51,373 nt of DNA. Source: a bacterium (GTDB lineage Bacteria > Hinthialibacterota > Hinthialibacteria > Hinthialibacterales > Hinthialibacteraceae). The DNA is taken from NCBI GenBank assembly GCA_963663405.2, contig CAXXSM010000125.1, positions 1-51,373 on the forward strand. The letters are read 5' to 3'. The notes under the pieces are model-generated. The model did no database searches. It saw nothing but the letters and a program-made list of their open reading frames with translations, and was not told where the DNA came from. The position numbers and the translations under genes were made by a program. Below, one piece after another: positions 4,348 through 45,823 of this stretch; positions within the stretch are counted from its first letter, which is position 1; the number at the start of each line of letters is the position of its first letter.

Positions 4348-4375
4348 GAATTTGCCTGATCCATGAGGTAAGAAT

Positions 4376-4397
4376 GGAACGCGGGCGTCCCCGCCCG
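4376..4397. repeat. REP-like GC-rich palindrome (family A, copy 1)
   Basis: GGAACGCGGGCGTCCCCGCCCG; related inverted copy at 31451-31474. Confidence 0.55.
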
Positions 4398-4411
4398 TGA
4401 TTGATAGCCTT

Positions 4412-4444
4412 GTAGGATGGGCTAAAAGCGAAGCATAGCCCACC
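4412..4444 (+). repeat. GTAG-type REP element (copy 1)
   Basis: GTAG followed by a TGGGCTA...TAGCCCA stem; related element at 15687-15716. Confidence 0.6.
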
Positions 4445-4458
4445 AAAATAACAGCATA

Positions 4459-4545
4459 TTGAATCACGAATTTTACGGATAAAGCACGAAGTCCTCATAT
4501 CATTTTCCGTGCAATCCACCTCCATCCGAGTCATCCGTGATTCAA
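4459..4545. repeat. Short inverted-repeat element (TTGAATCACG...CGTGATTCAA)
   Basis: 12 of 13 terminal bases complementary; intergenic. Confidence 0.5.
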
Positions 4546-4582
4546 ACAAGGAAGGTTCTAACCTCACCTTTTCAATTAAAAT

Positions 4583-4618
4583 AAAATCCGCTCCTGGCCG
4601 CAAAGACCAGGGGCGGTT
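4583..4618 (-). terminator. Rho-independent terminator-like hairpin
   Basis: CCGCTCCTGG/CCAGGGGCGG stem with an A-tract on the left, just after the stop at 4626. Confidence 0.5.
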
Positions 4619-4625
4619 GCATGAA

Positions 4626-4898
4626 TCATTCTTCTGGCTGGAAAAGCGAAGCGCCGGACACTCTGGTGGTTAGATCGCTGATTTTGAAAACTTTTGTCAC
4701 TTCTTCGGTATACAGTATTACGTGTTTACTGTCGGGAGTGAAACGCATAGCGAGATAAGATGGAGTATTGAACATCCAAATTTCCCTGCATATCCCATTA
4801 TCCTCCAATCGTTGCAACCGGATTCCTCGATTTGTCAAAAGAGTCGTAATATAATTGCCATCTGGAGTTATATGGGTACTTGTTGATCTTCCATCCAT
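4626..4898 (-). pseudogene. C-terminal fragment of a WD40/beta-propeller-like protein
   Basis: ITPDGNYI and FTPDSKHV blade-like motifs; no intact upstream portion. Confidence 0.4.
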
Positions 4899-5173
4899 TC
4901 GATTAAACTCTTGGACAACTTCAAGAGTATTGATATCATACGTCCGATACCGCTAACCTACTACTCCCTTACTGGTATCTTCGATTGATACTCTTTCAAT
5001 TAACCATTCTTTAAGATATTATTGAAATCGGCCTTCATGAATTCATGAAGGCCACTATTTTAAATGGCGCCGGTAAATTTCTAAATTGGAAAGGGATCAT
5101 TTTGTATTAACAATAATATTGTCAATTGGTAAGCGGCGACCCGATTCAGCCTGGAAAGTCACACGTGGTCTGA

Positions 5174-6791
5174 TTACTTGTTGATAGGTGCAATTGGGTT
5201 CGGCTCTAGATCCGTCTGTATGATCTCAAAACAGCATACCGATTGTGTAGAAGCGGCTGGGAGAGTGAGAAAGACGAGATTACCGTCCCTTTCGATCGTT
5301 GCTGCATGTCCATTTAGAGAAGCGTTAACCTTGGTTGCGCCAGAGCCGGTAGAAAGCCTAACTCCTAATCGTTGGCTGCCGCCGCAATAAGTTCCTGTAA
5401 TTTGTCCCTGCCGCATCCTGTATTGAAGCCGCCGATCACGCCACACGAGAGTTTGTCCAAAGCCATTCTTCCAGTACTTTTCCGGGACAGTTGGATCAAG
5501 CGTTAGCGTTCCATCCAAACCCATTTCAACTCCAAACAAGAAGTTTTGAACGATTCGGATTAGATTGGCGGGATATTCGCAATATTTTTCCGCGCCGTAA
5601 CCGCCTTTCTCGTTATACCGCTCCTGCCAGTAATAGTCATTTTCCCGCCCGGCTTTACACACCCGTTGAATCGAATCCACAAGGCCTTGACCATCCCCCA
5701 TACGCGCTCGCGCCCAGGCTTCCAGATACCAGACGCGCCCCATAGCCGCTAGATCCATCGTATCGGAGTACGTAGATTCCCAGGGTTTATAGGTCTCCGG
5801 AAATGTGGCGATGCCTGTAGGCATGCCGCCATAATAAAATCGTTTCTCATCCTTCAATCTCGGCCAGAGACAAGCGCGCTGCCCGGCGCTGGCGGCGCCA
5901 GTCGCTATCGCGCACCAGTCCACATCAGTCAAACCATGATTGGAGATGAGTCCACGCTCCGGATGGATGTATTCGGCAAAATGATCCGTAAGCCAAAACC
6001 GGTTTCGGAAGTGAGATTCAATCTGGTCAGCGATATTACGGTATTTTCTGGCGGTCTCGTTGCCGTCAGCGATCTCGTTCAATGCGGCTGCCCGCCGGAA
6101 CGCATCGATCGCATGGCACTGTGATACGCCATCATATTCAATGCGCGTTGGACGTTCAACATAATAACCTGCGCCCTTGATCGCGCCGTCATCGGTCATT
6201 AGCGATGCCAGGAAATCAGCTGCGCGGTTGATGGACGGGAGTTGTTTTAGGAGCCACTCGATGTCCTGTGTAAAGCGGAAGATGGAGTCAGCGTTTTGGA
6301 TGTAAGTTGGGCTGGCCAGCGCCCGCAAAGGATCACCGGGTACCCAGTGGCGATAGAGGCCGCCGTTCGCATCCACTTTCGATTGGTAAGAAGGGGGTCC
6401 AATCCATTGGCCTGCGCTGGCTGGTAGAATCGCCAATGGGAGTTGTCCATTCGATCTTTGAAACTGCGTAACATAATCCCAGTTCGCTTTCACAACATCG
6501 GCCTGGCCCAACCAAAGCAGCGCGCCGGTCATCTGGTGTCCGTCCAGCGAAGGATAGGTATTACCGTATCCGAATCCTTGACCGTCGGCGCAAACCGACC
6601 AGTATCCGGGAAAGACCTTTGGATTTACGGCGGCCAATACATTTTTTTTTCGCCGCATTTTCATAGGCTTCTGCGATTTGAGCGTCGGGAAAATCCAATA
6701 ACGCAATCTCCGCCCCCTGAATTGTACAGACTGCTATGCTCATGGAAATCGCAATGGAGAGATTCGATAGAAACGTTTTCATCATTTTCAA
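5174..6791 (-). CDS. Secreted (alpha/alpha)6-barrel glycoside hydrolase-like protein, frameshifted
   Basis: Signal peptide in ORF 6561-6791 joins ORF 5174-6706 across an A9 run (6642-6650); FQRSNGQLP, WQERY and KYCEYP motifs resemble six-hairpin glycosidases. Confidence 0.6.
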
Positions 6792-6986
6792 CCTATGGAA
6801 TCGCTACGATATTATTATCTAATCTATTATATTTCAAGCCGTTTTTTGGTTGACGAACAGCCGTTGTATTTGTATCTTCGAAACGGCGTCGTTCAATAAA
6901 GTATGAAGAAACCAAAAAATTTTCGTAACAAGTCATATGACAGTGATAAAATTACGATAATCATAATTCATAGCATGATGAGAGCT

Positions 6987-7034
6987 ATTCTCCCCCCAAG
7001 CCTGGGGGGAGTTAGAGGGGGGTTGACGATCGAT
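6987..7034 (+). repeat. CTCCCCCC...GGGGGGAGTTAG palindromic element (copy 1)
   Basis: Same arms as 10816-10884. Confidence 0.65.
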
Positions 7035-7185
7035 AAATCTAATCCTCTTTCCATACGTCGGCTGAATTTATAAATTAAATCAAAAAACCATCCTAAATTA
7101 TTTATTTATCCTCACGCGCGCCTATGACAAGGGCTATGTTGTAATACTATTGATGCTTTGAATCCAATAAGTTTAGGAGGTATTT

Positions 7186-8160
7186 ATGAAGTTCCACCAT
7201 GCCGCGTTAGTAATAATCATACTTATGGGCGCATTCGCCAGCGTTGCGAGTGAACCGGAATCAATAAAAAGACCGAATATCGTAAAACTTGGTACAATTG
7301 ATCTGGATTTGGTCGAGTGCACGCCCATTGTATTCAAAGATCGTCTTTATCGTTTCGAATATGTCCGCGAGCGGTATAAACCCAATACGACAGGGGATTC
7401 CTATTTCCGGTTTATCGATATGGAAACAAACGAGCCAACGAAGGGATTTGCCAAGGGCTATCATTTGGGCAGCGCTTTTGTCGATAGGGACAAGGTTTAT
7501 GTAACTGGTGTCGATATTTGGGGGGGAAGCCGGATCGAACTGTTTGTTTCCTCGGATTTAGAAAATTGGGAGCAGCGAACCGCGCTGAATATTTCGAAAT
7601 ACAAGATCTATAACACATCTCTTTGCAAAGCGGAAAACGGTTATGTGATGATGTTCGAAATCGGCGCCCCACCGGAGGGAAGCGGGCGCGCGGTTTACCG
7701 CCCGTTTCGCTACATCAAACGATCTTCTCACCTGGACCGTTACCCCCCCCGGATTGTGTATATTCAAAGGACCGCTATACGGCGCCGCATTGTCTACGTT
7801 TCCTTGACGGCTTTTTTTACAACTTCTATCTGGAAGCTCATGAAGGGTATGAAATGCGCGTGGTTCGTTCCAAGGATCTCATACACTGGGAACCAAGCCC
7901 GCTCAATCCCGTTTTGCGGCCATTCCCCAGAGGACAAAAAGATCGCCAATCCAAAACTAACAGCCGGCCAGCGAAAAGCGATTGCCGAAGCGAAGAATAT
8001 TAACAATTCTGATATTGACTTCTGTGAATACCAGGGCAGGACAGTGATTCTTTATTCGTGGGGAAATCAGCAGGGTAAGGAATTTCTCGCGGAGGCGGCC
8101 TATGCGGGAACGGAAGCGTCGTTCATACGCGCTTGGTTTAAAGAGGACAACAATCGCTAG
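7186..8160 (+). CDS. Secreted beta-propeller glycosidase-like protein with compensating internal frameshifts
   Basis: GGAGG RBS, signal peptide, repeated SxDLxxW motifs; plausible middle segment (PDCVYSKDRY...RSKDLIHWEPSPLNPVL) lies in another frame (7623-8003). Confidence 0.6.
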   Translation: MKFHHAALVIIILMGAFASVASEPESIKRPNIVKLGTIDLDLVECTPIVFKDRLYRFEYVRERYKPNTTGDSYFRFIDMETNEPTKGFAKGYHLGSAFVDRDKVYVTGVDIWGGSRIELFVSSDLENWEQRTALNISKYKIYNTSLCKAENGYVMMFEIGAPPEGSGRAVYRPFRYIKRSSHLDRYPPRIVYIQRTAIRRRIVYVSLTAFFTTSIWKLMKGMKCAWFVPRISYTGNQARSIPFCGHSPEDKKIANPKLTAGQRKAIAEAKNINNSDIDFCEYQGRTVILYSWGNQQGKEFLAEAAYAGTEASFIRAWFKEDNNR

Positions 8161-8221
8161 TGAATTTCTATGACGCGCGCTGTTCGGGTATTTGGACTCG
8201 ATCGAGATGGATTTTATAGGA

Positions 8222-10031
8222 TTATGGATTGACTCCTCGTGTTAAAAGTTGCTTGAATTCATCAAAGTGATTTGTATATACATCTCGTGGATTGATTGTA
8301 TACTTTTTGCACAAAAAAGCCGCCAAGCCTACTACTTCTCCCATCAAACCACCCGTTCGCATAACGCGGAACGGTTCCCAACGCGTCATGTGTGACGCTG
8401 ATATCGCGGCCTGCCATAAACAGATTTGTTATATTTCTGGAATAAAAAACAGCGATAAGGCACATAGTACGGCTTCTCGTAATCGGTGTAATGCGCCGTG
8501 GCAAGAAACGCGTCTCCCTCAAAACTCTGCTCGTATTGCTTATTCGGTAGATGGAGATCGATTTTCCAGCCTGTGACGACACATCCATCAATAAAGTCTT
8601 TGCCGCTCAGTAGATCTTCTTTTTGACAAGATCACATCCCCTAATAAGCGCCGGGATTCCCGTTTTCCCAGAAATATATGCGCACCAATTCAATTTGTGA
8701 TTCGCGTAGATTTTGTCTATGTTTTTAAGGCAATCCCAAGCGCCATACATCGCCCGAAAATTCCAGTCTCGAATGTACTCTCCTTTTTCGAAAGGATCGT
8801 GATAGAATCCGCTTTCCCAATACCAACCGCCCAATTTAGTGATACCGCCTTCGCCCCCACGTCCAGGAAACGGCTTCGAACTTAAATCAAGAGCCCACGG
8901 ACAGTGGGGAAAGGATACTGGTTTCTCTGTCTCTTTTACGTTCCATAGGTTACAGCGGCCCATATGGCCGTCCAGCGTTAAGTCATAATCAGCCCCGGCA
9001 AGAAAACCAATACAGCCATCTCCCGTGCAATCGGAAAACCATCGTCCTGGGAAACGCAGACGGGCGCCGGTGTTGATATTCTGCGCAATAACCGCCTTGA
9101 TGGCGCCATTTTCCGTTTCCACTTCATTGGCGCGATAGCCAGGGAAAAACGATATGTTCTTTTCCGCTTTTACAAGAGTGATTTTCTTTTCATCTTCATA
9201 TAAATCAGCGGTGTTATCAGGGCCGTAATGGGCTGATTTTTCCTGCTCCAACTCTTGCACAACATCCCCTAGCCGGGGATACTTGACGCCATGAATCTTC
9301 CCCTGAAGCCAGACTCGAATTTCGGAACTGTTGTTTCCTCCGAGTACGGGCCGGTCCTGAATGAAAGCGGTTTTGAGCCCATTTCGCGCTGCGGAGAGGG
9401 CCGCGCAAGTTCCGGCGATACCGCCTCCCACAACAACCATATCGTAGACGCCCGCATCAGGGGGATTCTCTGGATAGCCTAGTAATTTACGGCGAAATCC
9501 ACTCATCTCAGGATCTTGATTCGGTGGAATTCGATCCTTATCTGTTGAAAATAGTATGGCGTCGCAACGGCCTTCAAAACCGGTCAGATCGTGTAAAGCG
9601 ATAGTGATACGCTTCTTATCTATGAAAATAACACCACCATCCTGCCAATTCCAATCAGCGTCTTTGACGCCAAAGATTGGTCTCAATGGGGAATGGTTGA
9701 TGATGATTTGGAACTTTCCTGGAGTTCCTGACGCTTTTTTCGCTGGCGCCGTTGACTCGGTTTTCCACGGTCCAACCCAATCGCGAGTTCTCACCCAAAC
9801 ACGGTACTCGCCTGTTTCGGGAAAATCGATTGTGGTTTCGGCGTCTTCAACAGGAATCCCCAAACCATGCGCGAGTAAGAAGGGGGATCCCATCTCGTCC
9901 ATGAATTGCTGATCCACCACCCATCCACCAAGACGATCGAAGTGTTCTGTTTCAACAAGAACCGTAGAGTCCGCCATATTAACGGTTGCGCGCAATAGTA
10001 GAAATGAAAGCGTCCAGAATTTTATATGCAT
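8222..10031 (-). CDS. FAD-dependent oxidoreductase (FAD_oxidored family), frameshifted C-terminus
   Basis: VVGGGIAG, LGGNNSSE and DCTGDG; C-terminal motifs RESRRLLGD, PYRC/FYSRNITNLFMAGRDIS and RVMRTGG split over frames. Confidence 0.8.
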
Positions 10032-32846: not shown

Positions 32847-34022
32847 ATGACCGGTTTTTCATGGAGATGGGCAGAGATCTCTCCATTATTCTTTAGTATT
32901 CTTTTCTTCATTTCAGAGGTCCAAGCAGGCGGGCCTGTGGTGAAAAACGTGCGGGCTTCGCAGAGGGGGGATGAATCCCGGCTGGTGGATATTTATTATG
33001 ACCTTGAAGATTCGGATACGGAGCACGTTCTTGTCACCGTTAAGATTTCCGATAATGGGGGGGCGTCTTATGACTTAATACCGGTTACTCTTCAGGGTGA
33101 TTTTGGCTTGGTTGGGCCCGGTCTGAATCGGCATATTGTATGGGATTCAGGGCGGGATCTTCCGGGTGTATATGGTAAACATTACCGGGCGGCGGTGACG
33201 GCGGAAGACGCGTATACTCCTGAAGATGCACTTGTTACGATTGCGATTCCCGGACTTCCTCCAGGCTCCAAGCCGTTGGAGTTAATAGGTGTGCCTTCGG
33301 GAACTTTTTTGATGGGAAGTTTTCATGCGGATCCAAACCGGCCCGCAAATGAGAAACCTGAACATCACGTGACGATCGCGAAGAGTTTTTTCATGGGGCG
33401 ATGCGAGGTAACAAACGCGCAGTTCCGCGCGTTCCGCTCTCAGCATACCAGCGGAGATTATGAGGGGAATTCTCTCGATGGCGATAACCAGCCTGCGGCG
33501 CTCGTGAGTTGGAGCGAGGCTGCCGCGTTCTGTGATTGGTTGACGGAGGAAACCGGGATGCGGTTCCGTCTTCCGACCGAGGCGGAATGGGAATACGCTT
33601 CACGCGCAGGAACAACGTCGTACCGATTTTGGGAAGAGATGGCACCGGACGCATCGGCTTGTGAGTACGCGAATGTATTGGATTTAACCGCACAGAATGA
33701 TTCCATCACATCCCCATTGATGTTTCCATGTGAAGACGGTTATGTGGTCTCAGCGCCAGTGGGATCGTTTCTCCCCAATGCATTTGGATTGCATGATATG
33801 TTGGGAAACGTGTGGGAATGGTGTTTGGATTGGTACGAAGACTACACGAGCGATTCTCAAATCGATCCAGTAGGTGAGGGTGATCTTCTCTATCATGTGC
33901 GGCGGGGGGGCAGCTGGGCTGATGGTTCCGATTATATCCATACCGCGACACGTATTCCAAGCGCTGTGGGATTTCAACGGTATAACGTTGGTTTCCGGGT
34001 CGTGATGACTCCTCATGAATAG
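32847..34022 (+). CDS. Secreted formylglycine-generating-enzyme-fold (SUMF1) domain protein with an N-terminal beta-sandwich
   Basis: EVTNAQF, RLPTEAEWEYA, PNAFGLHDMLGNVWEW, RGGSW and VGFR. Confidence 0.9.
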   Translation: MTGFSWRWAEISPLFFSILFFISEVQAGGPVVKNVRASQRGDESRLVDIYYDLEDSDTEHVLVTVKISDNGGASYDLIPVTLQGDFGLVGPGLNRHIVWDSGRDLPGVYGKHYRAAVTAEDAYTPEDALVTIAIPGLPPGSKPLELIGVPSGTFLMGSFHADPNRPANEKPEHHVTIAKSFFMGRCEVTNAQFRAFRSQHTSGDYEGNSLDGDNQPAALVSWSEAAAFCDWLTEETGMRFRLPTEAEWEYASRAGTTSYRFWEEMAPDASACEYANVLDLTAQNDSITSPLMFPCEDGYVVSAPVGSFLPNAFGLHDMLGNVWEWCLDWYEDYTSDSQIDPVGEGDLLYHVRRGGSWADGSDYIHTATRIPSAVGFQRYNVGFRVVMTPHE

Positions 34023-34078
34023 AAATGCTTACTAAACGTGAGATGGATTAATATATTCACGATAATGGAATTCTAAGA

Positions 34079-37000
34079 ATGAAACGGGGATCGAAAAGAA
34101 GAGCAGCGATACTTCGCGTTTATGTAATGAGCGCGTTAATTATCTTTATGACATCCTCTAACGCGTATTCCACATCATCCACGGGATACTCGAATGAATT
34201 CATAATCCATAACACAGATCCACTTGAGATCATTACATCCTCACTGATGGATGGATTGATGGGGGGTATATACGAGTTCGCGATTGATATCGCCGATGGC
34301 GCGCCTCCTATCTCCTTTTCTATCGCCAATGGGGAATTGCCGCCTGGAGTGACTTTAAACGCTGATGCAGGAACGTTTTATGGTATTCCAACGCAAGCGG
34401 GTTTGTTTACGTTCTCTGTTGAAGCGGTTGATGATGTGAACGATCGTGTTACACGGGAATATACAATTCTAGTTAAGGCTCCACCGAAGTTCTTGACGAG
34501 TTCGATTCTCCCACGGGGCACATATGGGAAGGATTATTTAGTCTCTTTCGAGGCGGCTGATGGAACGCCGCCATACATTTTTTCTCGAACCGGAGGAACA
34601 TTGGCTCAAGGGCTGAGTTTCAATTCACTAGGATATCTTTTTGGCGCGCCGCTTCAAACGGGAACATTTTCATTCACTGCAAAAGTTCGTGATCAAGATG
34701 GATTTACGGCGGAAAAGGAATTTACATTTTCAATTGTCGATCCGGTCTCAATTTCAACGGAACAATTGGATGATATGGTTTTGGGGCAGGCATATGACGC
34801 TTCTATCACCGCACAGGGAGGATATGGGGAACTGACGTGGGAGGTCTATTCCGGCGTTTTGCCAAATGGGCTGAAATTGAATTCATTGAATGGAACACTT
34901 TCCGGCGCGCCCGATGAAAAAACGATTCGTCCAGTCTCGTTCGCGGTGTACGATGAAGAAGGCCGGATCGCCTTTCAAGATTATACCTTGCGTGTATCCG
35001 ATCCATTGACAATCCAGAGCGCCATTCTTCCAAACGCGATGAAAGGAGAATTCTATTCAGAGCCCGTGCTTGTCATGGGGGGGATCGGCCCTTATACATT
35101 TACCCTGCAAGGAGAATTGCCGGAAGGATTGTTGTTTAATCCATCGAATGGATCCGTGACCGGTATCCCTTTTTATTCTGAATCCAGTGAATTTACCGTG
35201 AAGGTGACGGATAGCCGGTATCCTTTTAAACAATCCGTGTCACGTACCTTTGGTTTGACCGTAATGGATGAATTCACGATTTTGGATGGTTCATTGATCT
35301 CGGAAGGCCGGGAAGGGAAGACCATTGATCCCATTTTGTTAACCGCAAAGGGAGGCGTTTCTCCCTATTACTGGACTGTGCGTAAAGGATTTCTACCGGA
35401 AGGAATCGAATTGAATGATGGGATTTTGACGGGAACCACGCTTTCGCGGGGGGATTATACATTTCACCTCCAAGTGACCGATTCGATGGGAACGTCTGCG
35501 CAAAAACAATTCTTCTGGCGTGTAACCAGTCCTTTGGAGATTCTTACCAACAAAGCTCCCGCTGGGGCGAAAGATGTTCCATATCGTTTGGCGCTGAGCG
35601 CTCGAGGAGGTGTGGCGCCGTATATCTGGCGTTTTAAAAGCGGTGTTATGCCGGAGGGACTTCGGGTGAATGATTATGGAACCATTTCGGGAACACCGAA
35701 ACGCAAACAGACAAGTACTTTTATTCTTGAAGTCAACGACAGCGGCGACAAACAACAGACCGTCGTACAGAAACTAACACTTACCGTGTCGGATTCTCTC
35801 GTGATTACACAGGGAAGCCTTACCAGCGCACGGAAGGATCAAGATTATTCCGCAAGTATTCGCGCCGCGTTGGGGACGTCTCCATATACATGGAAACTTC
35901 TGAGCGGCGTATTGCCTCAAGGACTCCGTTTGGAGCAGACATGGAATCGCGCGTATCTGAAAGGCGCGCCAACGGACACTGGATCCTATTCTTTTACTCT
36001 GCAAGTAAAGGACAGCGGGAAATACGTCCAATCCGCCACCCAAGCGTTTACTATGAATGTCTTTTCCATGGTAAAGATTGAAACGGAATCATTGCTGAAT
36101 GCGATTGCGGGATTTCCCTATTCCGATTCGATTGAGGCGGAAGGCGGTCTTTCCCCTTATTACTGGAAAATCACAAGCGGGGCTTTACCAGATGGATTGC
36201 GGATGGATTATTCTACCGGCGAAATATCAGGGGAAACGACAATGGATATCGGGGAAAGTTCCGATTTCACTGTGCGGGTGACCGATTCAGGCTTTCCCCC
36301 TATTTATGATGAGAAAGAGTATTCTATCTCTATCAATGATGACGTTGAAATTGTGACAAAATCAATGGATAGCGCATATAAAGGCGTTACATATTTTGCT
36401 TGGTTAGAAGGAGTGGGAGGAACCGCCCCCTATACTTGGACAATAGAGTCGGCCGAGGACGCTCCGAACGGTTTATACTTAGATCCATTGACGGGAATCC
36501 TTTCGGGTATCCCAACACAAGTGGGAGAATATAATTTTACGATCCGGATGCGGGATCAATCCGTCCCGCAGAAAACCACAGTCAGGGAATATACGCTTAC
36601 GGTGGAGTATCCCGGTCTCTATGTGGTGGCGTCGTTTTCGGTTGATGGTTTCTCCTATGGGATGCTTCCCAGTGGAGAGACGATTCCTGCGCTCGCAGCG
36701 GGTCAAACGGTGACCGTTTCGATTCGTGTCTACGATCCAGCGGGTGGGAATATTCAGGCGCCACAGATCACTCATTCTGAAATAGGGGATACAGGCTCGT
36801 TTCTCGTGACTGGTTTGAAAACCGGGAGAATCAATGGTTCGTATACCTATACGGTTCCAGAAAAACCATCGTCTCCACTCATCCAAATCTCACTGTTATT
36901 CCAATCACAATATGGGCGGAACTGCGTCTTTACAATGTTCATTGAGACAATCCAGGATGAACCAGAACCCACTCCAACACCGGTTTGGACTGAATCGGTT

Positions 37001-38611
37001 ATTGTCTGTGATGAACCGGGAACCCTGTGCGAAGACTTAACAGGAGAGACGGATTACGATCCCTTGGATTCCAGGAATCTATCCATTTATCGAAATGTAG
37101 AAACGGGAGATGCGAAGGACTGGCATGTGTATGTGCGGCAGGGATTGGGTGGGGCGATGTATTTGGGACGGATGGGTTCCGGCGCGGCTGATGCGCTCCA
37201 TTGGTATCCAGCCGCTCCCCTTCTGGCCGCCGAATTTCGGTCAGGTCCTAACTATAATTCCGTGTATTCGTTTCGGATTATCCGCATCGACGATCAACTT
37301 GATTCTACAGATATCTTCGATCAATCCGGTCCAGTTGGATATAATTTGGAAGGAGGGAATCCCGTTTCGTTGGCCCGTCCCGCCATGCCCAATTTAGAGC
37401 CGGGGCAGGTGAGCGTATACGACGGGCTTCTGGGTGGGCGCGATCTGGCGCCGATGGGGGAGAGTGGGCTTGATTATGATGATTCCAGTGCCCGTGGGAT
37501 TCAAATCGCGTGGAACTTTGGAATCGACTCTTCTACGATTAGCGAATATCACGTCTATGTAAAAGTGAATGATGGAGACTATGAGTTTTTGGGGCAGACG
37601 CTCTCCAGCCAGATCACGTATTTTTTATGGACGCCCAATGGAGAGTTTCGAACAAATGAGAAATTCGCGGAAGGACCGATGGATAGTCATATCTATCAAT
37701 TTCGTATCAATCCACTTGCTTTGAATGGATCATCGGAGGAACTTCACAGTGGTTCGCTGGAGTATCATGTATTGGACAATCCTGACGCTACGCCGGCGCC
37801 GGCGAATGTCGTGATCTATGATGACTCCGTTTCATCTCTTGATCTGACCGGGGGGATGGATTATGACGCGGTGTCTGAGAGGAATCTTACGATCGAATGT
37901 CTCGCGCCGATTCAGAACGCGAAAGACTGGCATGTTTATGTGAGAAAAGGATTGGGAGGAGTCAAGTATTTAGGCCGTACGGCGAGTGGAGAAACGCCAC
38001 GATTGGATTGGAACGCATCCACTTCGTTCTTGAGTTCGGAATTCCGGAAGGGGCCGGATTTCAACTCGGTCTATTCATTCCGTATGATTCGTTTGGATGG
38101 GGATCTTGGACCGGATGATTATTTTACTGTAGCGGGACCTGTAGGTTTTAATCTGGAAGGCGGCGCTCCACTCTCTCTTTTACAACCTGCGCCGCCCGAT
38201 TTGGAAACGGGAGAGATCGTTGTTTATGATGATATTCTCGGCGGGAATGATCTATCGTCTCCAGGAGGAACCGGATTTGACGAGGATCCCTCCAGCTGGC
38301 GGGCCCTTCAAATCGCCTGGAATTTTGGACTGGATTCTTCTCTTGTGAATGAATACCACGTTTATATTAGAGTGGATCAGAAATCCCGATTGGGAATATC
38401 TTGGGCAGACATTGGGATGGCTCAATCTCCTATTTCTGGTGGACCTCCGCAGATCAATTCAAGACAAAGACTGAATTTGCTGATGGCCCTGAACATGGGC
38501 ATACGTATCAATTCCAAACGGCCCTGATTCCCTTTAGCGGCTCTCGAAGGACTGTTAACGAGTGGGTCAATTGAGTATATCGTATCTGATGAGATGGGGA
38601 TGGATGATTGA
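34079..38611 (+). CDS. Large secreted protein with tandem putative Ig (He_PIG-like) repeats and a duplicated C-terminal module; frameshifted tail
   Basis: About nine GGxxPY...GxLPxGL...GxP repeats; two copies of DLTG..D.D...DWHVYVR.GLGG / QIAWNFG...EYHVY; tail continues out of frame to TGA 38609-38611. Confidence 0.8.
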
Positions 38612-38908
38612 AAACATTTGATTTCTAAAATTCGCGTACTTCGTTTTTCTATATTTCTACCCAAAGATTGAAAACTCAAACCTGACCAAGTAATAGATGT
38701 GATTTTTCCTATAAATCATTAAAATATCAAGATTTATTTCTTTTCTTGATAACAGGTTATATAATAAAAGTTTATACTTTTGAAGATTGAGAGACGAGTG
38801 GATTCAAAAGAAAACCTTTTTAAACGCTGTTTTTTTTCTCAATAGTAGGCTGTTTTTTTCGTTATAGAGTGTTGACATGAACGTTTTCTATATAAGCATC
38901 GGAGTAAA

Positions 38909-39520
38909 ATGAAAAGTATTAAAAAAATGTTAAGCCGTATTCGATATGGAAAACCGGTTGTCTTAGTCTCCGGTCTGCCACGGTCGGGCACATCGATGTT
39001 GATGCAAATGCTGGATCGAGGTGGTGTCCCTGTTGTGACAGATACGATTCGTAAAGCGGACGAAGATAATCCGAAGGGGTATTATGAGTTAGAGCAGGTC
39101 AAGGATCTGGATAAAGGTGGCGATAAATCTTGGCTTGAAGCGTACAAAGGACAGGCGGTGAAAATTATCTCGTTTTTACTGCGTGATCTGCCTGCCAATT
39201 TAAACTATAAAGTTCTTTTTATCCTGCGTGATATTGATGAGATTATCGAATCCCAGAAGAAAATGCTCGATCGGCGCGGTGAAGATCCGGATGGAACGAG
39301 TGATGAGAAAATGAAATCGAATTACGAGAATCACTTATGGCGGGTTCGATATCAACTTAATCATTCCTCCAATATGGATGCGCTGTATATTCAACACCGG
39401 GATATTCTCAACCAGCCGGAAATTGAGGCGAAACGGATTCACGCCTTTTTAGGCGATTCTCTTGATATTGAAGCCATGACGAGTGTTGTTGACAAATCAT
39501 TATATAGAAACCGCCGGTAA
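38909..39520 (+). CDS. Sulfotransferase-family protein
   Basis: 5'-PAPS-binding loop SGLPRSGTSMLM; NPKGYYE; ILRDIDEIIES (3'-PB-like R...S). Confidence 0.85.
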   Translation: MKSIKKMLSRIRYGKPVVLVSGLPRSGTSMLMQMLDRGGVPVVTDTIRKADEDNPKGYYELEQVKDLDKGGDKSWLEAYKGQAVKIISFLLRDLPANLNYKVLFILRDIDEIIESQKKMLDRRGEDPDGTSDEKMKSNYENHLWRVRYQLNHSSNMDALYIQHRDILNQPEIEAKRIHAFLGDSLDIEAMTSVVDKSLYRNRR

Positions 39521-39572
39521 TACCTTTGCAGGAACCGTTGAATTTGGATATTAAACACCATTTGAGAACAAT

Positions 39573-41717
39573 ATGAAAACAAATCATTCTTCACGATCGT
39601 TGATGTTTTGGTGTGGGGCGCTGAGTGTTATTTTTTGCGCGGCGCGAGCGGAAGCGTACGTTGGGCCGGGAGCGGGATTCGCCTTTGTTTCTACGTTTTT
39701 TATCTTTTTCATGACGTTCGCCTTGGCTTTCTTGACGATTCTCACGTGGCCGATTAAATGGGTCATCCGCGTCCTCTTTCGCTCGAGGAAATTAAAATCG
39801 AGTAAAGTGAAACGGGTATTGATCGTTGGATTGGATGGACAAGATCCTGAACTCACCGAAGAATTTATGAATCAAGGGCTTCTGCCGAATTTCACCAAGC
39901 TGAAAGAACAAGGCGCGTTCAGCCGTTTAGAGACTACGTTACCGGCCGAATCGCCCGTCGCGTGGTCGACTTTCCAGACGGGATGCAATCCTGGGAAACA
40001 TAGAATTTACGATTTCCTGGTTCCGAATCGCAAGGTGATGGTTCCGGAACTTTCTTCGTCAAGCGTCAGCACGTCGTCCCGGACCTTAAAACTAGGGAAA
40101 TATATCATTCCATTGGGAAAACCGGCGATGACTGTCGGGCGGAAGAGCCAACCGTTTTGGAAGGTATTAGGGGAATATGGCGTAACGAGCACAGTCGTGC
40201 GCGTTCCATTAACTTTTCCGCCGGAGAAGTTCAATGGGATTCTTCTCTCCGCCATGTGCCTGCCCGATTTGAAAGGCAGCCAGGGAACGTTCTTCTATTA
40301 CACAAGCGATCCGGACGAAAAACGGGATTTAACCAGCGGTGAGCAGCTGCCGCTGTCTAGGCAAAATGGAACCGTCAAAGGCGCCATCTCCGGGCCGGAG
40401 AATTCCTTAGTACAAGAGGGCGGGATCTTAGAGGTTCCATTTGAAATCCGTCTGGGCTCAAATGGGAATCATGAATTAATTCTTGATAAAGACCGGTATC
40501 CACTTAAAAAGAAGGAATACACACCTTGGATACAAGTTACATTTAAACCAGGGCTGGGGATGAAAGTCCGGGGCGTGTGCCGGTTTATGCTGTTGGATAC
40601 AGAACCGCACGTCCGGCTCTACATGACCCCCCTGCAGATTGATCCTGAATATCCAGCGCTGCCTATCTCATACCCATACACATATTCCGTCTATTTAGCA
40701 AAATTGCAGGGAACGTTCGCGACGTTAGGCGTGGCGGAGGACACATCCGCGTTGAACGAACGCATCATCGATGAAGAGGCGTTCAAAGAGCAATGTATGA
40801 GCATTCATCAAGAACGTGAAACGATGTTCTTCGACGCGATCGATAAAACGCCGCAAGGCGCTGTCGTTTGTGTGTTTGATATCACAGATCGAATGCAGCA
40901 CATGTTCATGCGTTTTCTGGATGAGGATCATCCAGCGATTGGTGATCTCAACATCGATGAATATCAGGATGAAATTAAAAACCTGTATATTCAGATGGAT
41001 GATTTGGTCGGCCGGGTTATGGACTACATCGATGACGATACGATTTTGATGGTGATGTCGGATCATGGATTTAAGGTTTTCCGGCGGGGATTCAATCTGA
41101 ATACGTGGTTGAAAGACAATGGATTTTTAACCGTGAAAGAAGACGCTTCCGGCGCGGATATGCTGCAGGATGTGGATTGGTCCAAGACAAAAGCCTATGC
41201 GGTGGGTTTTGGAGGGATCTATTTGAATATAGAGGGCAGAGAAGCGAAAGGAATCGTTAAACCTGGGGAAGCGGAAGCCTTGAAAAAAGAAATCGCGGAG
41301 AAACTCCTCGCCTATAAAGATGAAGAAACCGGAGAAACCCCCGTTAAGCAAGTGTATGACCGGAACGAAGCGTACAGCGGCCCTTACGTCCAAGACGCGC
41401 CGGAACTGGTCGCCGGATTTCGTGTAGGATATCGTGTGGCTTGGGAATCCGTGACCGGTGGTGTTGGGGATCGAGTTGTTACGGATAATGCGCGGCCTTG
41501 GGCGGGCGATCATAACATGAATCCGCCGGACGTGCCGGGAATGTTTTTCTGCAACCGGCCGTTCGCCAAAGAAAAACCACGGATTGAAGATATTGGTCCG
41601 ACGACGCTGGATTTATTCGGCGTTCCCATTCCAGCGTATTGTGATGGTGAGTCCATTGCTGTTGATATAAAAACAGAGAAAGAAATATCGGAAGACAGTG
41701 TAGAGGGACGTGAATAG
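39573..41717 (+). CDS. Alkaline-phosphatase-superfamily (NPP/phosphodiesterase-like) protein with a YVGPG membrane anchor
   Basis: GLDG, nucleophile region ESPVAWSTFQTG, DRMQH, SDHGF and GDH; N-terminal signal plus TM helix. Confidence 0.85.
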   Translation: MKTNHSSRSLMFWCGALSVIFCAARAEAYVGPGAGFAFVSTFFIFFMTFALAFLTILTWPIKWVIRVLFRSRKLKSSKVKRVLIVGLDGQDPELTEEFMNQGLLPNFTKLKEQGAFSRLETTLPAESPVAWSTFQTGCNPGKHRIYDFLVPNRKVMVPELSSSSVSTSSRTLKLGKYIIPLGKPAMTVGRKSQPFWKVLGEYGVTSTVVRVPLTFPPEKFNGILLSAMCLPDLKGSQGTFFYYTSDPDEKRDLTSGEQLPLSRQNGTVKGAISGPENSLVQEGGILEVPFEIRLGSNGNHELILDKDRYPLKKKEYTPWIQVTFKPGLGMKVRGVCRFMLLDTEPHVRLYMTPLQIDPEYPALPISYPYTYSVYLAKLQGTFATLGVAEDTSALNERIIDEEAFKEQCMSIHQERETMFFDAIDKTPQGAVVCVFDITDRMQHMFMRFLDEDHPAIGDLNIDEYQDEIKNLYIQMDDLVGRVMDYIDDDTILMVMSDHGFKVFRRGFNLNTWLKDNGFLTVKEDASGADMLQDVDWSKTKAYAVGFGGIYLNIEGREAKGIVKPGEAEALKKEIAEKLLAYKDEETGETPVKQVYDRNEAYSGPYVQDAPELVAGFRVGYRVAWESVTGGVGDRVVTDNARPWAGDHNMNPPDVPGMFFCNRPFAKEKPRIEDIGPTTLDLFGVPIPAYCDGESIAVDIKTEKEISEDSVEGRE

Positions 41718-41759
41718 AACAGTTTTCGTTTCTTCTCGGAAACGTGGAGGATTGGCGTT

Positions 41760-43781
41760 ATGAATACGTTATTGAAAAATCATTTTTGTCGAATGATTTG
41801 TTTATCTATATTAACTATCGCTGTGATGAGCAGCGCAGCGCAGGCGAAGAAAGTGATCGTGCTGGGATTTGACGGCACAGACGCGAATTTGTTGAAACAA
41901 TTTATGGAAGAGGGCGCTCTGCCGAATTTTTCACGATTGGTCTCGTCGGGCGATTTTTCGCCTCTTCGGACATCCGATCCTCCGCAGAGTCCGGTCGCCT
42001 GGTCGACATTCATCACGGGTATGGATCCAGGCGGGCATGGAATCTATGACTTTGTACACCGCGATCCCAAAACATATTTCCCCATAATGTCCATGGCTGA
42101 GGCGGTTCCGAGTGAGCGCACTCTCTCGTTTGGATCGTGGGTGATTCCTTTGACGAGTGGGAAAGTGGAGTCACACCGGCATGGACGGGCGTTTTGGGAA
42201 CTTTTGGGAGAATATGGGATTCCAACGACTGTGTTCCGAATTCCCGTTAATTTTCCACCCACCGAAAACGTGCCGAAGCATAAGTCGTTTTCGGGGATGG
42301 GCACGCCCGATATTACCGGCTCCCCCCGCACTTTCTCCTATTACACAACCAAAATGCCTTCTAACGCGAAGGATTTCAGCGGAGGTAAGGCCTATCAGGT
42401 GCGAGCTGTCGACAATACTGTTGAGGCGAAACTGCATGGCCCTACAAATCCCTTCCGGCGGTTTCCCCAAAAAGACAAACGTTCCACAACCGTCACCTAT
42501 GAAAATCCTGAATGTGAACTTGATTTTCAAGTCTATTTGGATCCGGAAAGAAAAGTGGCTAAGTTTGTTGTCGGCAGTGAAGAATTTATCTTGAAAGAGA
42601 AGGAATGGAGTGATTGGATTCCTGTCACGTTTGAAGGGGTGCCCTATTTCGTTCCCATTCATTCCATTGCGCGCTTTTATTTGAAGGAGATCGCCCCGGA
42701 ATTTAAACTATATGTTTCGCCGCTTCAGATCGATCCTGCCAATCCCGCGATGCCGATCTCGGCTCCGGCTGGTTGGGCCAAAGAACTGTGTGAGAAGAAC
42801 GGCCCTTTCTATACGCAGGGCTTACCCGCGGATACAAACGCGCTCCAATGCGGCGTGTTTGATGGGCCTGAATTTTTAGAAAATCTTCTTTATATATGTG
42901 ATGAAAATTTCAAACTTTTAAAAAATCTTCTCGCCGATTTTCACGAGGGCTTTTTCTTTTATTATTTCAATACTCTCGATCAAGGGTCTCATATGCTTTG
43001 GCGCTATGGGGATAAAGAGCATCCCGGTTTTGTGGATGAAGATTTCATGACCGTTGGAATTAAAGGACTCTACAAAAGAATGGATGAGGAATTGGGATAT
43101 GTGTTGGATCACATCGATAAGGACACGGTTGTGATCGCGATGTCCGATCATGGATTCGCTCCATTTTATTGGGGAATCAATTTAAATACGTGGTTGTATG
43201 ATAAAGGATATATCGCGCGGAATATTACATCTCGCCGGGCGCCAGAAATTTTCCCGTATGTCATTTGGAGAAAGACTAAGGCCTATGCGCTTGGTTTGAA
43301 TGGTGTGTACGTGAATCTGAAAGGGCGGGAGCGGGATGGGATCATATCGCCCGGTAAAGAATACAACGAACTGCTGGATCAATTAAAGGCGGATCTTTTG
43401 GCCATGCGCGATCCGCGCACGGGCAAGAATCCAATCTCAAGAGTTGTTTGTCCCCAAAGAGAGTTCCATGGAGAATACAAAGATGATGGGCCGGATATCA
43501 TTGTAGGGTTCAACCGGGGATACCGGATCTCCTGGGACAGCCCATTGGGGAAATTTCCGAAAGATGAATTTGTGGATAATATCAAAGCCTGGAGCGGCGA
43601 TCACTGCGCTGACAGCCGGGTTGTTCCTGGGATTCTTGTCACCAATCAAAAGATCACATTAGAGAACCCGGCTCTTTACGACGTGACAGTCGCCATCTTG
43701 GACGAGTTCGGTGTCAAACCGCTTCCAGAAATGATCGGGAAAGATTGCTTGGAATCCAAGATTCAAGAATCCGCTTATTGA
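41760..43781 (+). CDS. Alkaline-phosphatase-superfamily (NPP-like) protein, secreted paralog
   Basis: Signal ending AQA; GFDG, QSPVAWSTFITG, DQGSH, SDHGF and GDH. Confidence 0.85.
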   Translation: MNTLLKNHFCRMICLSILTIAVMSSAAQAKKVIVLGFDGTDANLLKQFMEEGALPNFSRLVSSGDFSPLRTSDPPQSPVAWSTFITGMDPGGHGIYDFVHRDPKTYFPIMSMAEAVPSERTLSFGSWVIPLTSGKVESHRHGRAFWELLGEYGIPTTVFRIPVNFPPTENVPKHKSFSGMGTPDITGSPRTFSYYTTKMPSNAKDFSGGKAYQVRAVDNTVEAKLHGPTNPFRRFPQKDKRSTTVTYENPECELDFQVYLDPERKVAKFVVGSEEFILKEKEWSDWIPVTFEGVPYFVPIHSIARFYLKEIAPEFKLYVSPLQIDPANPAMPISAPAGWAKELCEKNGPFYTQGLPADTNALQCGVFDGPEFLENLLYICDENFKLLKNLLADFHEGFFFYYFNTLDQGSHMLWRYGDKEHPGFVDEDFMTVGIKGLYKRMDEELGYVLDHIDKDTVVIAMSDHGFAPFYWGINLNTWLYDKGYIARNITSRRAPEIFPYVIWRKTKAYALGLNGVYVNLKGRERDGIISPGKEYNELLDQLKADLLAMRDPRTGKNPISRVVCPQREFHGEYKDDGPDIIVGFNRGYRISWDSPLGKFPKDEFVDNIKAWSGDHCADSRVVPGILVTNQKITLENPALYDVTVAILDEFGVKPLPEMIGKDCLESKIQESAY

Positions 43782-43821
43782 TTTATTATTGTTGATTTAT
43801 TATTTGTAAAAGGAAAAAAAT

Positions 43822-44013
43822 ATGTTTGGAACGAAAGTTAAACTCGACAAGGAATTGTACCAAAAAGTGAAGATGTACGCGGATTTGGCGGGGTATTCCT
43901 CCGTTGATGAATTTGTTTCGCACGCGCTGGAGAAGGAACTCTCGCAGCTGGATGACACTGAATCGGAAGAAGAGATCAAAAAGCGCTTAAAGGGGTTGGG
44001 GTATATTTCTTAA
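43822..44013 (+). CDS. Small ribbon-helix-helix-like protein with a C-terminal RLxxLGY motif
   Basis: KVKLDKELYQKVK...GYSSVDEFVSHALEKEL; tail EEEIKKRLKGLGYIS; AAGG RBS. Confidence 0.75.
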   Translation: MFGTKVKLDKELYQKVKMYADLAGYSSVDEFVSHALEKELSQLDDTESEEEIKKRLKGLGYIS

Positions 44014-44128
44014 ATCCCGTTTATTTATCATTGAGAGAGGGTGAGCGATGATGCCATCACGCCTGTTTTGTTATGCGGATTCGGTGGATCTCTCGTTTCC
44101 CATACAATTGTGAAGATATGGAAAGGTT

Positions 44129-44959
44129 ATGACACAGCTGGTTCATATACTGAATATCATCTTGGGTTTCGCGGTCGATATCCTCTATCTGCCATTGAGT
44201 GCGCTGGGGCCGTTCTGGTCGCTGACAGTGATTTCTCTTGTTGTCGGAGTCATGATGTTATGGATTTTTGGAAAAGTCTCCGATCAAGATAAGATCAAGC
44301 GCTCCAAGGATATCATTCAGGCGAATTTGATCGCCATTCGTTTGTTTCAGAACGATATGGGTGTGTTTTTCCGGATTTTCGGGCGTGTCTTGCTTGATAC
44401 GCTGATCTATATGAAATACCAGTTGAAGCCAATGCTGGTTATGATTGTTCCCGTAATCCTCATTTTAATCCAGCTCAATTGGCGTTACGGCGCGCGTTCG
44501 TTTGAACCGGGTGAGACACTGCTCGTGAAAGTCAAAGTGACGGACGCGTCAAAACTGAATGATATTTCACTCGAACCTTGCGAAGGTATCGTTGTCGAAA
44601 CCCCCGGTGTCCGCATCGCTCCAGAAAAAGAAATCTCCTGGCGGATCCGGGTTGAGAAGGAAGGCGTTCATACCCTGAAAGTCAAGAATGGCGGCGCGGA
44701 GGTGACGAAAAGACTCATCGCCGGTCCAACGGTTCAAATCCTCTCTCCCCTCCGCACGGGAAAAGGCATGTTGGATCTTCTCCTCTATCCCGGCGAATCC
44801 CCGATTGATACCACAACAGGGATCGAATCCATCGAGACCGATTATCCCTATACAGACGTCCCGATCTGGGGGTGGAAGATCAATTGGTTAATCCAGTTTT
44901 TTGTCCTGTCGATCGCGTTTGGGTATATGTTGAAAGGATTTTTTGGAGTGCATATTTAA
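44129..44959 (+). CDS. DUF106/EMC3/TMCO1-like (Oxa1 superfamily) membrane protein with an Ig-like insertion
   Basis: Amphipathic N-helix, TM1, DQDKIK coiled region, KPMLVMIVP TM2, soluble beta-rich insert, terminal NWLIQFFVLS...KGFFGV TM. Confidence 0.6.
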   Translation: MTQLVHILNIILGFAVDILYLPLSALGPFWSLTVISLVVGVMMLWIFGKVSDQDKIKRSKDIIQANLIAIRLFQNDMGVFFRIFGRVLLDTLIYMKYQLKPMLVMIVPVILILIQLNWRYGARSFEPGETLLVKVKVTDASKLNDISLEPCEGIVVETPGVRIAPEKEISWRIRVEKEGVHTLKVKNGGAEVTKRLIAGPTVQILSPLRTGKGMLDLLLYPGESPIDTTTGIESIETDYPYTDVPIWGWKINWLIQFFVLSIAFGYMLKGFFGVHI

Positions 44960-44977
44960 CGTGGATTGCTAACGATC

Positions 44978-45823
44978 ATGCCGCCGGAAACCTTGTACAA
45001 ATATCGTTGTTGGAGTGAAGAGTGTCATCGTCGATTACTCACAAATAACGAAATTTTCTTCTCTTCCCCTAAACATTTTAATGATCCTTTCGATTCTACT
45101 ATTCCTGTACGATACGATAAACTAACAAAAAACGAATTGCGTGCTGTTATATCGAGATGGTTAATTAGAGAAGAACCTAATCTTAAAAAACATCATAAAA
45201 AATTGGGGAAAAAAATAAATTCAAAAATGAAAGAACTTACTGATCCAAATATATCTTTAGAAAGAATGAGAGAACAGAGAGAATTTTGGAATAAAAAAGT
45301 TGGTATTTTTTCACTTGCAGAATGTAAAGATAATATATTAATGTGGTCTCATTATGCAGATTGTCATAAAGGAGTTTGTGTAGGTTTTGATTATTTGAAG
45401 ATAAAAAAATATATAAAAGATGGTTGTGAAAAGTGGATGCGTTATGAAGCTATAGCATTCCCTAAGCGATGTAATATTGATGTAGTAATCAGTCTGTTTA
45501 AAGTAGAATATCAAAAAGAGTATCCGGTAATCAATCCAGCAGAAATTAGGGATAAAAATAATATTTTTATCCCTATAACTACAAAATCCGACCAATGGGA
45601 ATACGAAAAGGAATATAGGTTGATTTTGGTAGATAGGACAGATTGTATTAAAATTCTTCCAAAGAATACGATCAATGAAGTGATTTTAGGATGTAGGATG
45701 GAATCAAGTCACAGAGATGAAATTAAAAGAGTATTAAAGAAGAAAAATGAGAATATCGAATTATATGAAGCAAAAATGAAAGAAGAAAGTTTTGGGTTGG
45801 ATTTTGAAAGAGTTGATTATTGA
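44978..45823 (+). CDS. DUF2971 domain protein
   Basis: LYKYR, FNDPFD, MWSHYADCHKGVC, KSDQWEYEKEYR and VILG; AT-rich. Confidence 0.85.
   Translation: MPPETLYKYRCWSEECHRRLLTNNEIFFSSPKHFNDPFDSTIPVRYDKLTKNELRAVISRWLIREEPNLKKHHKKLGKKINSKMKELTDPNISLERMREQREFWNKKVGIFSLAECKDNILMWSHYADCHKGVCVGFDYLKIKKYIKDGCEKWMRYEAIAFPKRCNIDVVISLFKVEYQKEYPVINPAEIRDKNNIFIPITTKSDQWEYEKEYRLILVDRTDCIKILPKNTINEVILGCRMESSHRDEIKRVLKKKNENIELYEAKMKEESFGLDFERVDY

Follow-up and report, generated by a model that had tools for sequence, protein, structure and literature searches.

A recurrent bacterial gene set joining paralogous alkaline-phosphatase-superfamily enzymes, a GLGY-tailed small protein and a Ylp1/DUF106-type membrane protein

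The window analysed here is a stretch of 51,373 nucleotides (positions 1 to 51,373 of contig CAXXSM010000125.1, GenBank assembly GCA_963663405.2) from a bacterium of the Hinthialibacteraceae. Between positions 38909 and 44959 it carries a cluster of five genes encoding a sulfotransferase (ST), two paralogous enzymes of the alkaline-phosphatase superfamily (AP1 and AP2), a 63-residue protein with a probable ribbon-helix-helix (RHH) body and a conserved C-terminal tail, and a membrane protein (MEM) of the Ylp1/DUF106 type. A preliminary description, made from the sequence alone, had noted five co-oriented, closely spaced genes here and proposed a new envelope system. The five open reading frames (ORFs) are confirmed at the coordinates listed below, all on the + strand, with intergenic gaps of 52, 42, 40 and 115 nt. 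The core that recurs in other bacteria consists of AP1, the 63-residue protein and MEM; AP2 is usual, and ST or genes for synthesis of 3'-phosphoadenosine 5'-phosphosulfate (PAPS) are often attached. We take the set to be a new kind of system assembled from known families. Its features are:

38909–39520, + strand: ST, 203 amino acids (aa), a PAPS-type sulfotransferase, predicted cytoplasmic; a frequent accessory, outside the core
39573–41717, + strand: AP1, 714 aa, an NPP-type enzyme of the alkaline-phosphatase superfamily with an N-terminal two-helix hairpin
41760–43781, + strand: AP2, 673 aa, a paralogue of AP1, predicted to be exported
43822–44013, + strand: RHH (or RHH-LGY), 63 aa, without a signal peptide; the body is probably ribbon-helix-helix and leads, through an acidic linker, into the tail GLGY[IM]x at the C-terminus
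44129–44959, + strand: MEM, 276 aa, a bacterial Ylp1/DUF106-type member of the Oxa1 superfamily
38680–38908, + strand: an AT-rich stretch 5' of ST, guessed from reading the sequence to hold the promoter

None of the five proteins reaches the cut-off of any NCBIfam model, each matches zero PADLOC families at E 0.001 or better, and Pfam assigns no family to the window's RHH protein or to its MEM.

Recurrence of the gene set

A wide scan of one genome per species gave 162 pattern matches, which yielded 143 confirmed relatives, and 80 loci were kept. Their record titles name Verrucomicrobiota, Omnitrophota, Sumerlaeota, Acidobacteriota (many lineages), Aminicenantes, Methylomirabilota, Thermodesulfobacteriota, Calditrichaceae, Gemmatimonadetes and Eisenbacteria, along with three Eubacteriales and several unclassified organisms; by these titles the core order AP1-(AP2)-RHH-MEM occurs in at least nine phylum-level groups. 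An RHH gene lies at most 400 nt upstream of MEM in 74 of the 77 loci that have at least 300 nt of upstream DNA, and a gene of the AP1 or AP2 type accompanies it in 55 of the 59 that have at least 5 kb (AP2 in 48), some lineages lacking AP2 while retaining AP1, the small gene and MEM. For three loci without an AP gene near MEM, an AP1 orthologue of 50–60% identity lies elsewhere in the genome, and all five genomes searched in this way were positive. Recurrence of the order in other genomes, which the preliminary description had named among the checks on its proposal, is seen over many phyla. It holds for AP1, AP2, RHH and MEM; ST, counted there as a fifth member, falls outside the core on the counts given further below.

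Closer to the window, MEM occurs in 7 of 41 related genomes, spread over four of twelve families, and all six loci fetched from other MEM-positive relatives keep the order AP1-AP2-RHH-MEM. Full-length AP1 orthologues (E 1e-227 or better) are found in exactly the seven relatives with MEM; because the genomes are kin, this co-presence does not amount to a statistical test. Presence is patchy within one family, which, taken with the wide range of phyla, suggests that the set moves as a unit and that the module has spread horizontally.

We consider it extremely unlikely that these genes are chance neighbours or a lineage-specific arrangement without shared function. Such a view could point to the variability of ST and to a scan in which promoter-like and terminator-like sites were in no excess over shuffled sequences; it is opposed by the adjacencies just given (74/77 and 55/59 loci over many phyla) and by the matching presence of AP1 and MEM in the 41 relatives. 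The preliminary description knew of no pathway with this gene set, and we likewise found it undescribed in the literature searched full-text, a body in which coverage of subscription journals is thin.

The paralogous enzymes and the Ylp1-type protein

Both AP1 and AP2 belong to Phosphodiest (PF01663; E 1.7e-28 and 100.7 bits for AP1, E 3.4e-31 and 109.6 bits for AP2, cut-off 23), and the Sulfatase family (PF00884) is below its cut-off or absent for each. They were described at the outset as twins, and paralogues they are, with 36% identity over 647 columns (E 2e-139). The AlphaFold model of AP1 (pLDDT 87.3; ~700 aa with beta-rich insertions near residues 150–190 and 240–360) has 183 Foldseek matches at E 0.001 or better, headed by SPAP, Xac NPP, ENPP1, PhnA and PafA with E values of 1e-11 to 1e-9 at 10–13% identity; searched against the PDB, the single AP1 sequence finds no chain and the AP1 profile weak chains only. 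Seven positions (D88, D439, H443, D497, H498, D646 and H647) do not vary among 33 orthologues, 28 of which have S and the other five T at position 127. We take these residues to be the metal ligands and the nucleophile because of the order in which such motifs occur in NPPs, rather than by superposition. On a reading of its sequence, AP2 carries the same motifs. That both are two-metal enzymes of the NPP type, their Ser/Thr nucleophile site intact, is strongly indicated. AP1 is like the NPP/PafA/SPAP/PhnA branch in its Pfam family, fold, Asp/His set and nucleophile position, but differs from it in the low identity, the beta-rich insertions, a membrane hairpin and a catalytic domain predicted to be cytoplasmic.

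The two enzymes part ways at their N-termini. All 57 N-complete AP1 orthologues open with a hydrophobic helix that resembles a signal sequence; the motif Y[IVL]GPGAG joins it to a further, long hydrophobic helix, and a K/R cluster then precedes the catalytic domain. The motif is present in 57/57 of these and in 0/55 AP2 orthologues, whose N-termini are Sec-type, twin-arginine-like or lipobox-bearing as classed by crude regular expressions, with two sequences unclassed. AP1 is predicted to form a hairpin, of which no more than a very short turn lies outside, and to keep its catalytic domain in the cytoplasm, and AP2 is predicted to be exported; hairpin and export signals together place the twins, as a prediction, on opposite faces of the inner membrane. 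To that extent the trans-membrane arrangement of the preliminary description is retained.

Its comparison of the twins with LtaS and EptA fares less well. In EptA, LtaS, OpgB and BcsG, a multi-pass membrane domain precedes a Sulfatase-family (PF00884) domain that lies at the outer face. What they have in common with the twins is that they are alkaline-phosphatase-superfamily enzymes with a hydroxyl nucleophile, located at the inner membrane and decorating envelope polymers. AP1 and AP2 differ in family (PF01663) and in the lack of a multi-pass domain, AP1 having two helices and a domain predicted to face inward and AP2 an export signal only, and we abandon that architecture for them. A better fit to it would be a Sulfatase-family protein of 846 aa whose N-terminal region is long and whose gene is a recurrent neighbour (17/80 loci).

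A third AP1/AP2 paralogue is encoded elsewhere in the window genome (L174:6759–9194, G000:C70; 811 aa, one N-terminal membrane helix). Nearly all relatives of the same family, whether or not they have the module, give matches to the C-terminal half of AP1 at ~40% identity. The neighbours of the third paralogue (SIR2, DUF92, PCMT and GT87) give no functional clue.

MEM has 184 homologues of ~275 aa in a 90%-clustered collection, where JGI uses the name 'DUF106 family' for 5 of the 120 listed, and in a 50%-clustered library it matches 3143 representative clusters at E 0.001 or better, 1157 of them at 1e-30 or better. A profile built from 39 homologues matches PDB chain 5c8j_I, 'Protein MJ0480' (E 5.7e-8, 35.7 bits), with query residues 14–124 aligned to chain residues 11–125. 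PF01956 (EMC3_TMCO1) gives weak matches in 7 of the 39 family members (best E 4.7e-4) and none with the window's MEM at E 1 or better; the gathering score is not reached, and a PF01956 search across the window genome did not return the MEM gene. MEM is a divergent relative rather than a member of the Pfam family, because PF01956 is not reached.

The AlphaFold model of MEM (pLDDT 90.7, pTM 0.81) has helices at 2–50, 53–72, 77–120 and 253–267, and comprises three transmembrane (TM) helices, a coiled coil and, between TM2 and TM3, an immunoglobulin (Ig)-like beta-sandwich at ~125–250 in which W171, R172 and E223 are invariant. Along the chain, a long helix, a helical hairpin and another long helix come before the sandwich, and one more helix comes after it. 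VIA-align against 48,161 chains placed 7tut_8, from the multipass translocon, at the top (Z 11.7, rmsd 3.3, 136 residues aligned, model 22–276); the next row stands at Z 8.5, YidC (3wo7_A) at Z 8.4 and Get1 coiled-coil fragments at Z 7.5. Chain 8 of 7tut is probably TMCO1, to judge by its length and by papers that mention both. Foldseek with the same model found no PDB chain at E 0.001 or better, and its weaker, well-fitting rows (rmsd 3–5) cover the Ig-like insert; the match of the helical core comes from VIA-align wide only. Homology of MEM to archaeal Ylp1/DUF106 within the Oxa1 superfamily is strongly indicated, in keeping with the Oxa1-like label first given to it. Profile homology to MJ0480 and the top structure match tie MEM to the Ylp1 (MJ0480)/TMCO1/EMC3/Get1 group; it differs in being bacterial, in its Ig-like insert of ~125 residues and in that its gene, instead of being solitary, shares an operon with genes for enzymes. 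The coiled coil would, by homology, be cytoplasmic and the Ig-like insert periplasmic. In the part of Anghel et al. 2017 (PMC5868721) that deals with the DUF106 group, the group is described as archaeal and eukaryotic.

These properties also feed the main rival to the processing role that we set out in the last section. MEM may be a dedicated insertase or holdase for the AP1 hairpin and nothing more, with AP1 and AP2 as independent hydrolases for the turnover or scavenging of phosphodiesters inside and outside the cell and with ST and the PAPS genes as loose cargo. Oxa1-family proteins insert small hairpins with short translocated loops, which is established knowledge and is also stated in the relevant part of PMC5868721. 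The AP1 hairpin is invariant in its 57 orthologues, presence of AP1 and MEM is identical across the 41 relatives, the nearest folds of AP1 are those of the hydrolases SPAP, NPP, PafA and PhnA, and a good share of loci lack ST. We nevertheless think this explanation unlikely: bacteria already possess YidC for such substrates, and the conserved Ig-like domain of MEM, predicted to be periplasmic, would be left without a role. The repeated finding of ST next to the module, in any of three arrangements, moreover speaks for selection and not for drift, and PAPS-synthesis genes recur as well, including a tailed kinase for adenosine 5'-phosphosulfate (APS).

The small protein and the LGY tail

The 63-aa protein is the most conserved of the set, at 52–79% identity across loci versus 44–62% for AP1 and 31–50% for MEM. 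Each of the 1977 candidates close to it in length passes E 0.01, and identity to the window's protein is 70–83% among the 120 listed. In 49/49 aligned sequences the GLGY tail (G58, L59, G60, Y61) is invariant and exactly two residues follow the tyrosine; A23, G24, Y25 and S26 of the mid-turn are invariant too. From its sequence pattern, the protein is likely to have the RHH fold. Two of the six small proteins scanned match RHH_1 of Pfam below the cut-off (19.0 and 16.8 bits versus 20.5), source names label some homologues CopG/RHH, and an Atlas feature search, which yields leads only, returned a CopG-named cluster at 0.96, probably the protein's own, and an RHH_1-bearing cluster at 0.87; these and the pattern are the grounds for the label. 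Of the two halves of the original RHH-LGY designation, the tail is firm and the fold is kept as likely.

The small protein is like the RHH antitoxins and partner-controlled RHH repressors (CopG/Arc/MetJ) in size, in a body compatible with beta-alpha-alpha, in a G-x-S turn, and in a flexible linker followed by a C-terminal tail that would bind a partner. It differs in a conservation across phyla far above what is usual for such regulators and in a predicted partner that is a membrane-anchored enzyme. Toxin-antitoxin and defence readings were considered and rejected, given no PADLOC matches and too high a cross-phylum conservation. A perfect 11-nt direct repeat, GCTGTTTTTTT, at 38826–38836 and 38849–38859 (23 nt spacing, ~50–80 nt upstream of ST), could be an operator for the 63-aa protein.

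Co-folding of set members, one of the checks first suggested, spoke weakly for the small protein on AP1 and gave nothing for MEM. The chains were AP1 80–700 and MEM 26–276, with two copies of the small protein as the partner and custom alignments. The verdict was 'weak support' (ipSAE 0.53; runs 0.51, 0.53 and 0.55; best of three controls 0.00), with contact agreement of at least 81% and a partner pLDDT of at least 67. The calibration comprised 80 solved complexes, of which 58 reached the mark, and 110 mismatched pairs, of which 2 did so, and scores of 0.60 or under that reached it came from only 7 of the 80 solved complexes plus both passing mismatches; this job, with four chains and custom alignments, is unlike the calibration set. 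The score fell to 0.00 when MEM was kept and AP1 alone was replaced, so the predicted contact is AP1. The same 0.00 offers no support for binding of the small protein to MEM, which by the rule of the tool is not evidence against it. The predicted docking on AP1, which is a lead, agrees with the loci L015, L028 and L049, where a paralogous tailed small gene lies directly 5' of a signal-less AP paralogue predicted to be cytoplasmic.

These three loci, of one lineage, hold a longer cluster that ends in AP1-AP2-RHH-MEM and is prefixed by the paralogous small tailed gene, the signal-less AP paralogue, an APS kinase and a second signal-less AP paralogue. Beyond its normal end, the in-cluster APS kinase is extended by an acidic linker and then by a tail that resembles the one on the small protein. 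Such an appended tail is present in 3 of 4 MEM-positive genomes versus 1 of 26 MEM-negative genomes whose kinase was read. In L049, AP2 itself ends in an LGY-type tail.

Across the window genome, 16 of 108,755 frames close with LGY[ILMV] and at most two further residues. Five of these encode Sulfatase-family proteins, one the small protein and one the APS kinase; two are fragments, and seven look like noise. Judged from the sequences, the LGY tail is a recurrent C-terminal element of alkaline-phosphatase-superfamily proteins, and within the module it stands on two proteins without an AP domain, namely the small protein and the appended APS kinase. We know of no description of an LGY-type C-terminal element in sulfatases. 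That the tail is specific to the module was rejected, since sulfatases of MEM-negative genomes and ordinary APS-kinase C-termini carry such ends; among APS-kinase ends, as far as sequence tells, it is only the tails appended inside the cluster that follow the module.

Several further observations concern the tail. (i) The five LGY-ended Sulfatase-family (PF00884) proteins of the window genome (G000), of 695–953 aa with an acidic stretch before the tail, are encoded on C11 (two genes), C80, C130 and C132, as loci L094, L095, L097, L100 and L101; two of the five clearly begin with a twin-arginine-type export signal and a lipobox. (ii) An LGY-type motif lies right behind the lipobox of AP2 in L067, L073 and L083, of which two are titled Eisenbacteria. 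(iii) APS kinases of relatives (L108–L131) ordinarily end in K-L-R-E-L-G-Y-I-E-W or a variant of it, which is similar to the tail of the small protein by either mimicry or coincidence. (iv) Seventeen longer proteins contain the small protein, and five of them (P0247, P0249, P0250, P0252 and P0253, each a single-member cluster) also have PF01663; these fused forms are either true fusions or read-through gene calls.

Invariance of Y61 in all 49 sequences, together with the top rank of the small protein in conservation, raises an explanation at the protein level, in which the GLGY tyrosine would be sulfated by ST or processed by AP1 and the 63-aa protein would be a modified signal or carrier. The only PDB matches to the P-loop region of ST are to protein-tyrosine sulfotransferase 2, which would suit it, but they are non-significant (E 0.17–0.22) and cover the PAPS loop only. 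The tyrosine is flanked by G and I/M with no acidic residues, and the same tail is found on exported sulfatases and in systems without ST; we hold this explanation to be highly improbable.

Sulfate genes and the proposed role

The sulfotransferase label holds. ST reaches Sulfotransfer_3 (E 8.5e-10, 39.7 bits, cut-off 27) and Sulfotransfer_1 (26.6 bits, cut-off 22) of Pfam, and in 45 aligned sequences the P-loop GLPRSG-S (G22, L23, P24, R25, S26, G27, S29) and the C-terminal R200 and R202 are at least 95% conserved, residues that, matched by sequence, may correspond to the PAPS motifs. Searched against PDB sequences it finds nothing significant, the best being the tyrosine sulfotransferase just mentioned. 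It is like PAPS-dependent sulfotransferases in its Pfam domains, putative PAPS loop and C-terminal arginines and in an orthologue within a polysaccharide cluster, and differs in having 203 aa only and no significant match to a solved enzyme. That orthologue, 55% identical and in genome G021, belongs to a cluster of the Wzx/Wza/Wzc type and lends the idea of surface-glycan decoration indirect support.

ST is a frequent accessory and not part of the core: among the 59 loci with at least 5 kb upstream, 35 have it, 14 times upstream on the same strand, 13 times upstream and divergent, and 8 times downstream of MEM. The sulfate theme of the preliminary description gains from the clustering of all locus ORFs, in which ATP-sulfurylase/APS-kinase fusions lie nearby in 13/80 loci, and from the tailed in-cluster APS kinase; an EamA-type transporter is another recurrent neighbour (11/80).

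The window genome has a second locus that joins Phosphodiest and sulfotransferase families (L107, G000:C8:8000–22000, minus strand, 1099–8833). Its order is a 387-aa Phosphodiest protein, a 531-aa TPR-sulfotransferase fusion (43% identical to the window's ST), a 389-aa protein, a 304-aa sulfotransferase and a 953-aa DUF4347 protein, with a TIR-domain gene adjoining.

NPPs cleave nucleotide pyrophosphate and phosphosulfate bonds, and the NPP-type fold and metal site of AP1 would suit nucleotide housekeeping for sulfation. AP1 would act on 3'-phosphoadenosine 5'-phosphate, PAPS or APS, clearing an inhibitory by-product or controlling the PAPS pool, AP2 would destroy such nucleotides outside and the small protein would report the status of the pool. 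Linkage of the module to ST, to ATP sulfurylase/APS kinase and to the tailed APS kinase speaks for this, as does the second Phosphodiest-sulfotransferase locus. A 700-aa anchored enzyme with an exported twin and an Oxa1-like partner exceeds what a housekeeping phosphatase needs, however, and most MEM-positive relatives gave no ST orthologue (counts below). We regard it as improbable, and less likely than the restriction of MEM to AP1 biogenesis.

Ranked behind nucleotide housekeeping and ahead of tyrosine modification, and so improbable as well, is a relay in which the AP paralogues, and not the classical sulfotransferase alone, use activated sulfate. Here the APS kinase would dock through the shared C-terminal tail on a cytoplasmic AP enzyme and pass PAPS on to it, a sulfuryl or 3'-phosphoadenylyl group would become bound to the Ser/Thr nucleophile of AP1 as a covalent intermediate, and the Ylp1-like protein with its putative groove and exported AP2 would complete the trans-membrane relay, decorating envelope molecules outside. 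To our knowledge neither such AP-sulfate chemistry nor such a role of an Oxa1-family protein is known in bacteria.

The role we put first, and then tentatively, is the processing of an anionic and in many cases sulfated envelope precursor by a membrane-bound module that would act at both membrane faces. AP1 would build or trim an anionic lipid-linked or lipid precursor at the cytoplasmic face, cleaving or transferring a phosphodiester or pyrophosphate group, with only the YxGPGAG turn of its hairpin reaching the periplasm. Where ST is present, the precursor would be sulfated from locally made PAPS. MEM would insert and hold the AP1 hairpin, its putative hydrophilic groove may let a polar head group cross, and AP2 would complete the processing outside. 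Through its C-terminal tail, the 63-aa protein would dock on the part of AP1 that lies in the cytoplasm, where it might tune the enzyme or from which it might be released to bind DNA and regulate the operon; it would in this way link the state of AP1 to activity or to transcription.

A number of points weigh against this role. As set out above, MEM could be a mere biogenesis factor. Sulfation is not a universal step of the module, because ST is missing from 24/59 loci and because, with the window's ST as the query, an orthologue was found in 2/7 MEM-positive relatives and not in the remaining 5/7. The window's 63-aa protein has no Pfam RHH match at E 10 or better and its family profile finds no RHH structure in the PDB; its docking on AP1 has, in the co-fold model, weak support with no interface reported. 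As to the tail, Sulfatase orthologues in MEM-negative relatives (L139–L167) share LGY-type ends, and the LGYIEW end of the window genome's APS kinase is the ordinary C-terminus of its family, found in MEM-negative relatives too. The topology was read from hydrophobic segments, charge distribution and crude regular expressions, and all related records are metagenome-assembled or single-cell genomes.

If the processing role is right, it would be an undescribed route of bacterial envelope modification used by many poorly known phyla, would give a bacterial Ylp1/DUF106-type Oxa1 protein its first functional setting, and would offer, as a case open to testing, paralogous enzymes at work on the two sides of a single membrane. 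Compact as it is (4–5 genes, ~6 kb), the module is transferable to a laboratory host. The C-terminal LGY tail may be a general, unrecognised docking or assembly signal of alkaline-phosphatase-superfamily enzymes.

The genes that flank the cluster are not counted with it. Just 5', at 32847–38527 (+), are two genes for which no link to the cluster is seen in other loci: one encodes a 391-aa protein with an FGE-sulfatase domain (NCBIfam GldK/PvdO-like models below their cut-offs), the other a 1482-aa protein with nine He_PIG Ig-like repeats. On the other side, the next gene (44966–45823, +) begins 6 nt past MEM and encodes a 285-aa DUF2971 protein; it was left out of the set because it stands beside the cluster in 0/86 related loci examined. 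PDC-S31, a candidate defence model of PADLOC, recognises its product (E 2.2e-70), and the gene sits in the stretch of lowest GC in the window (0.388).

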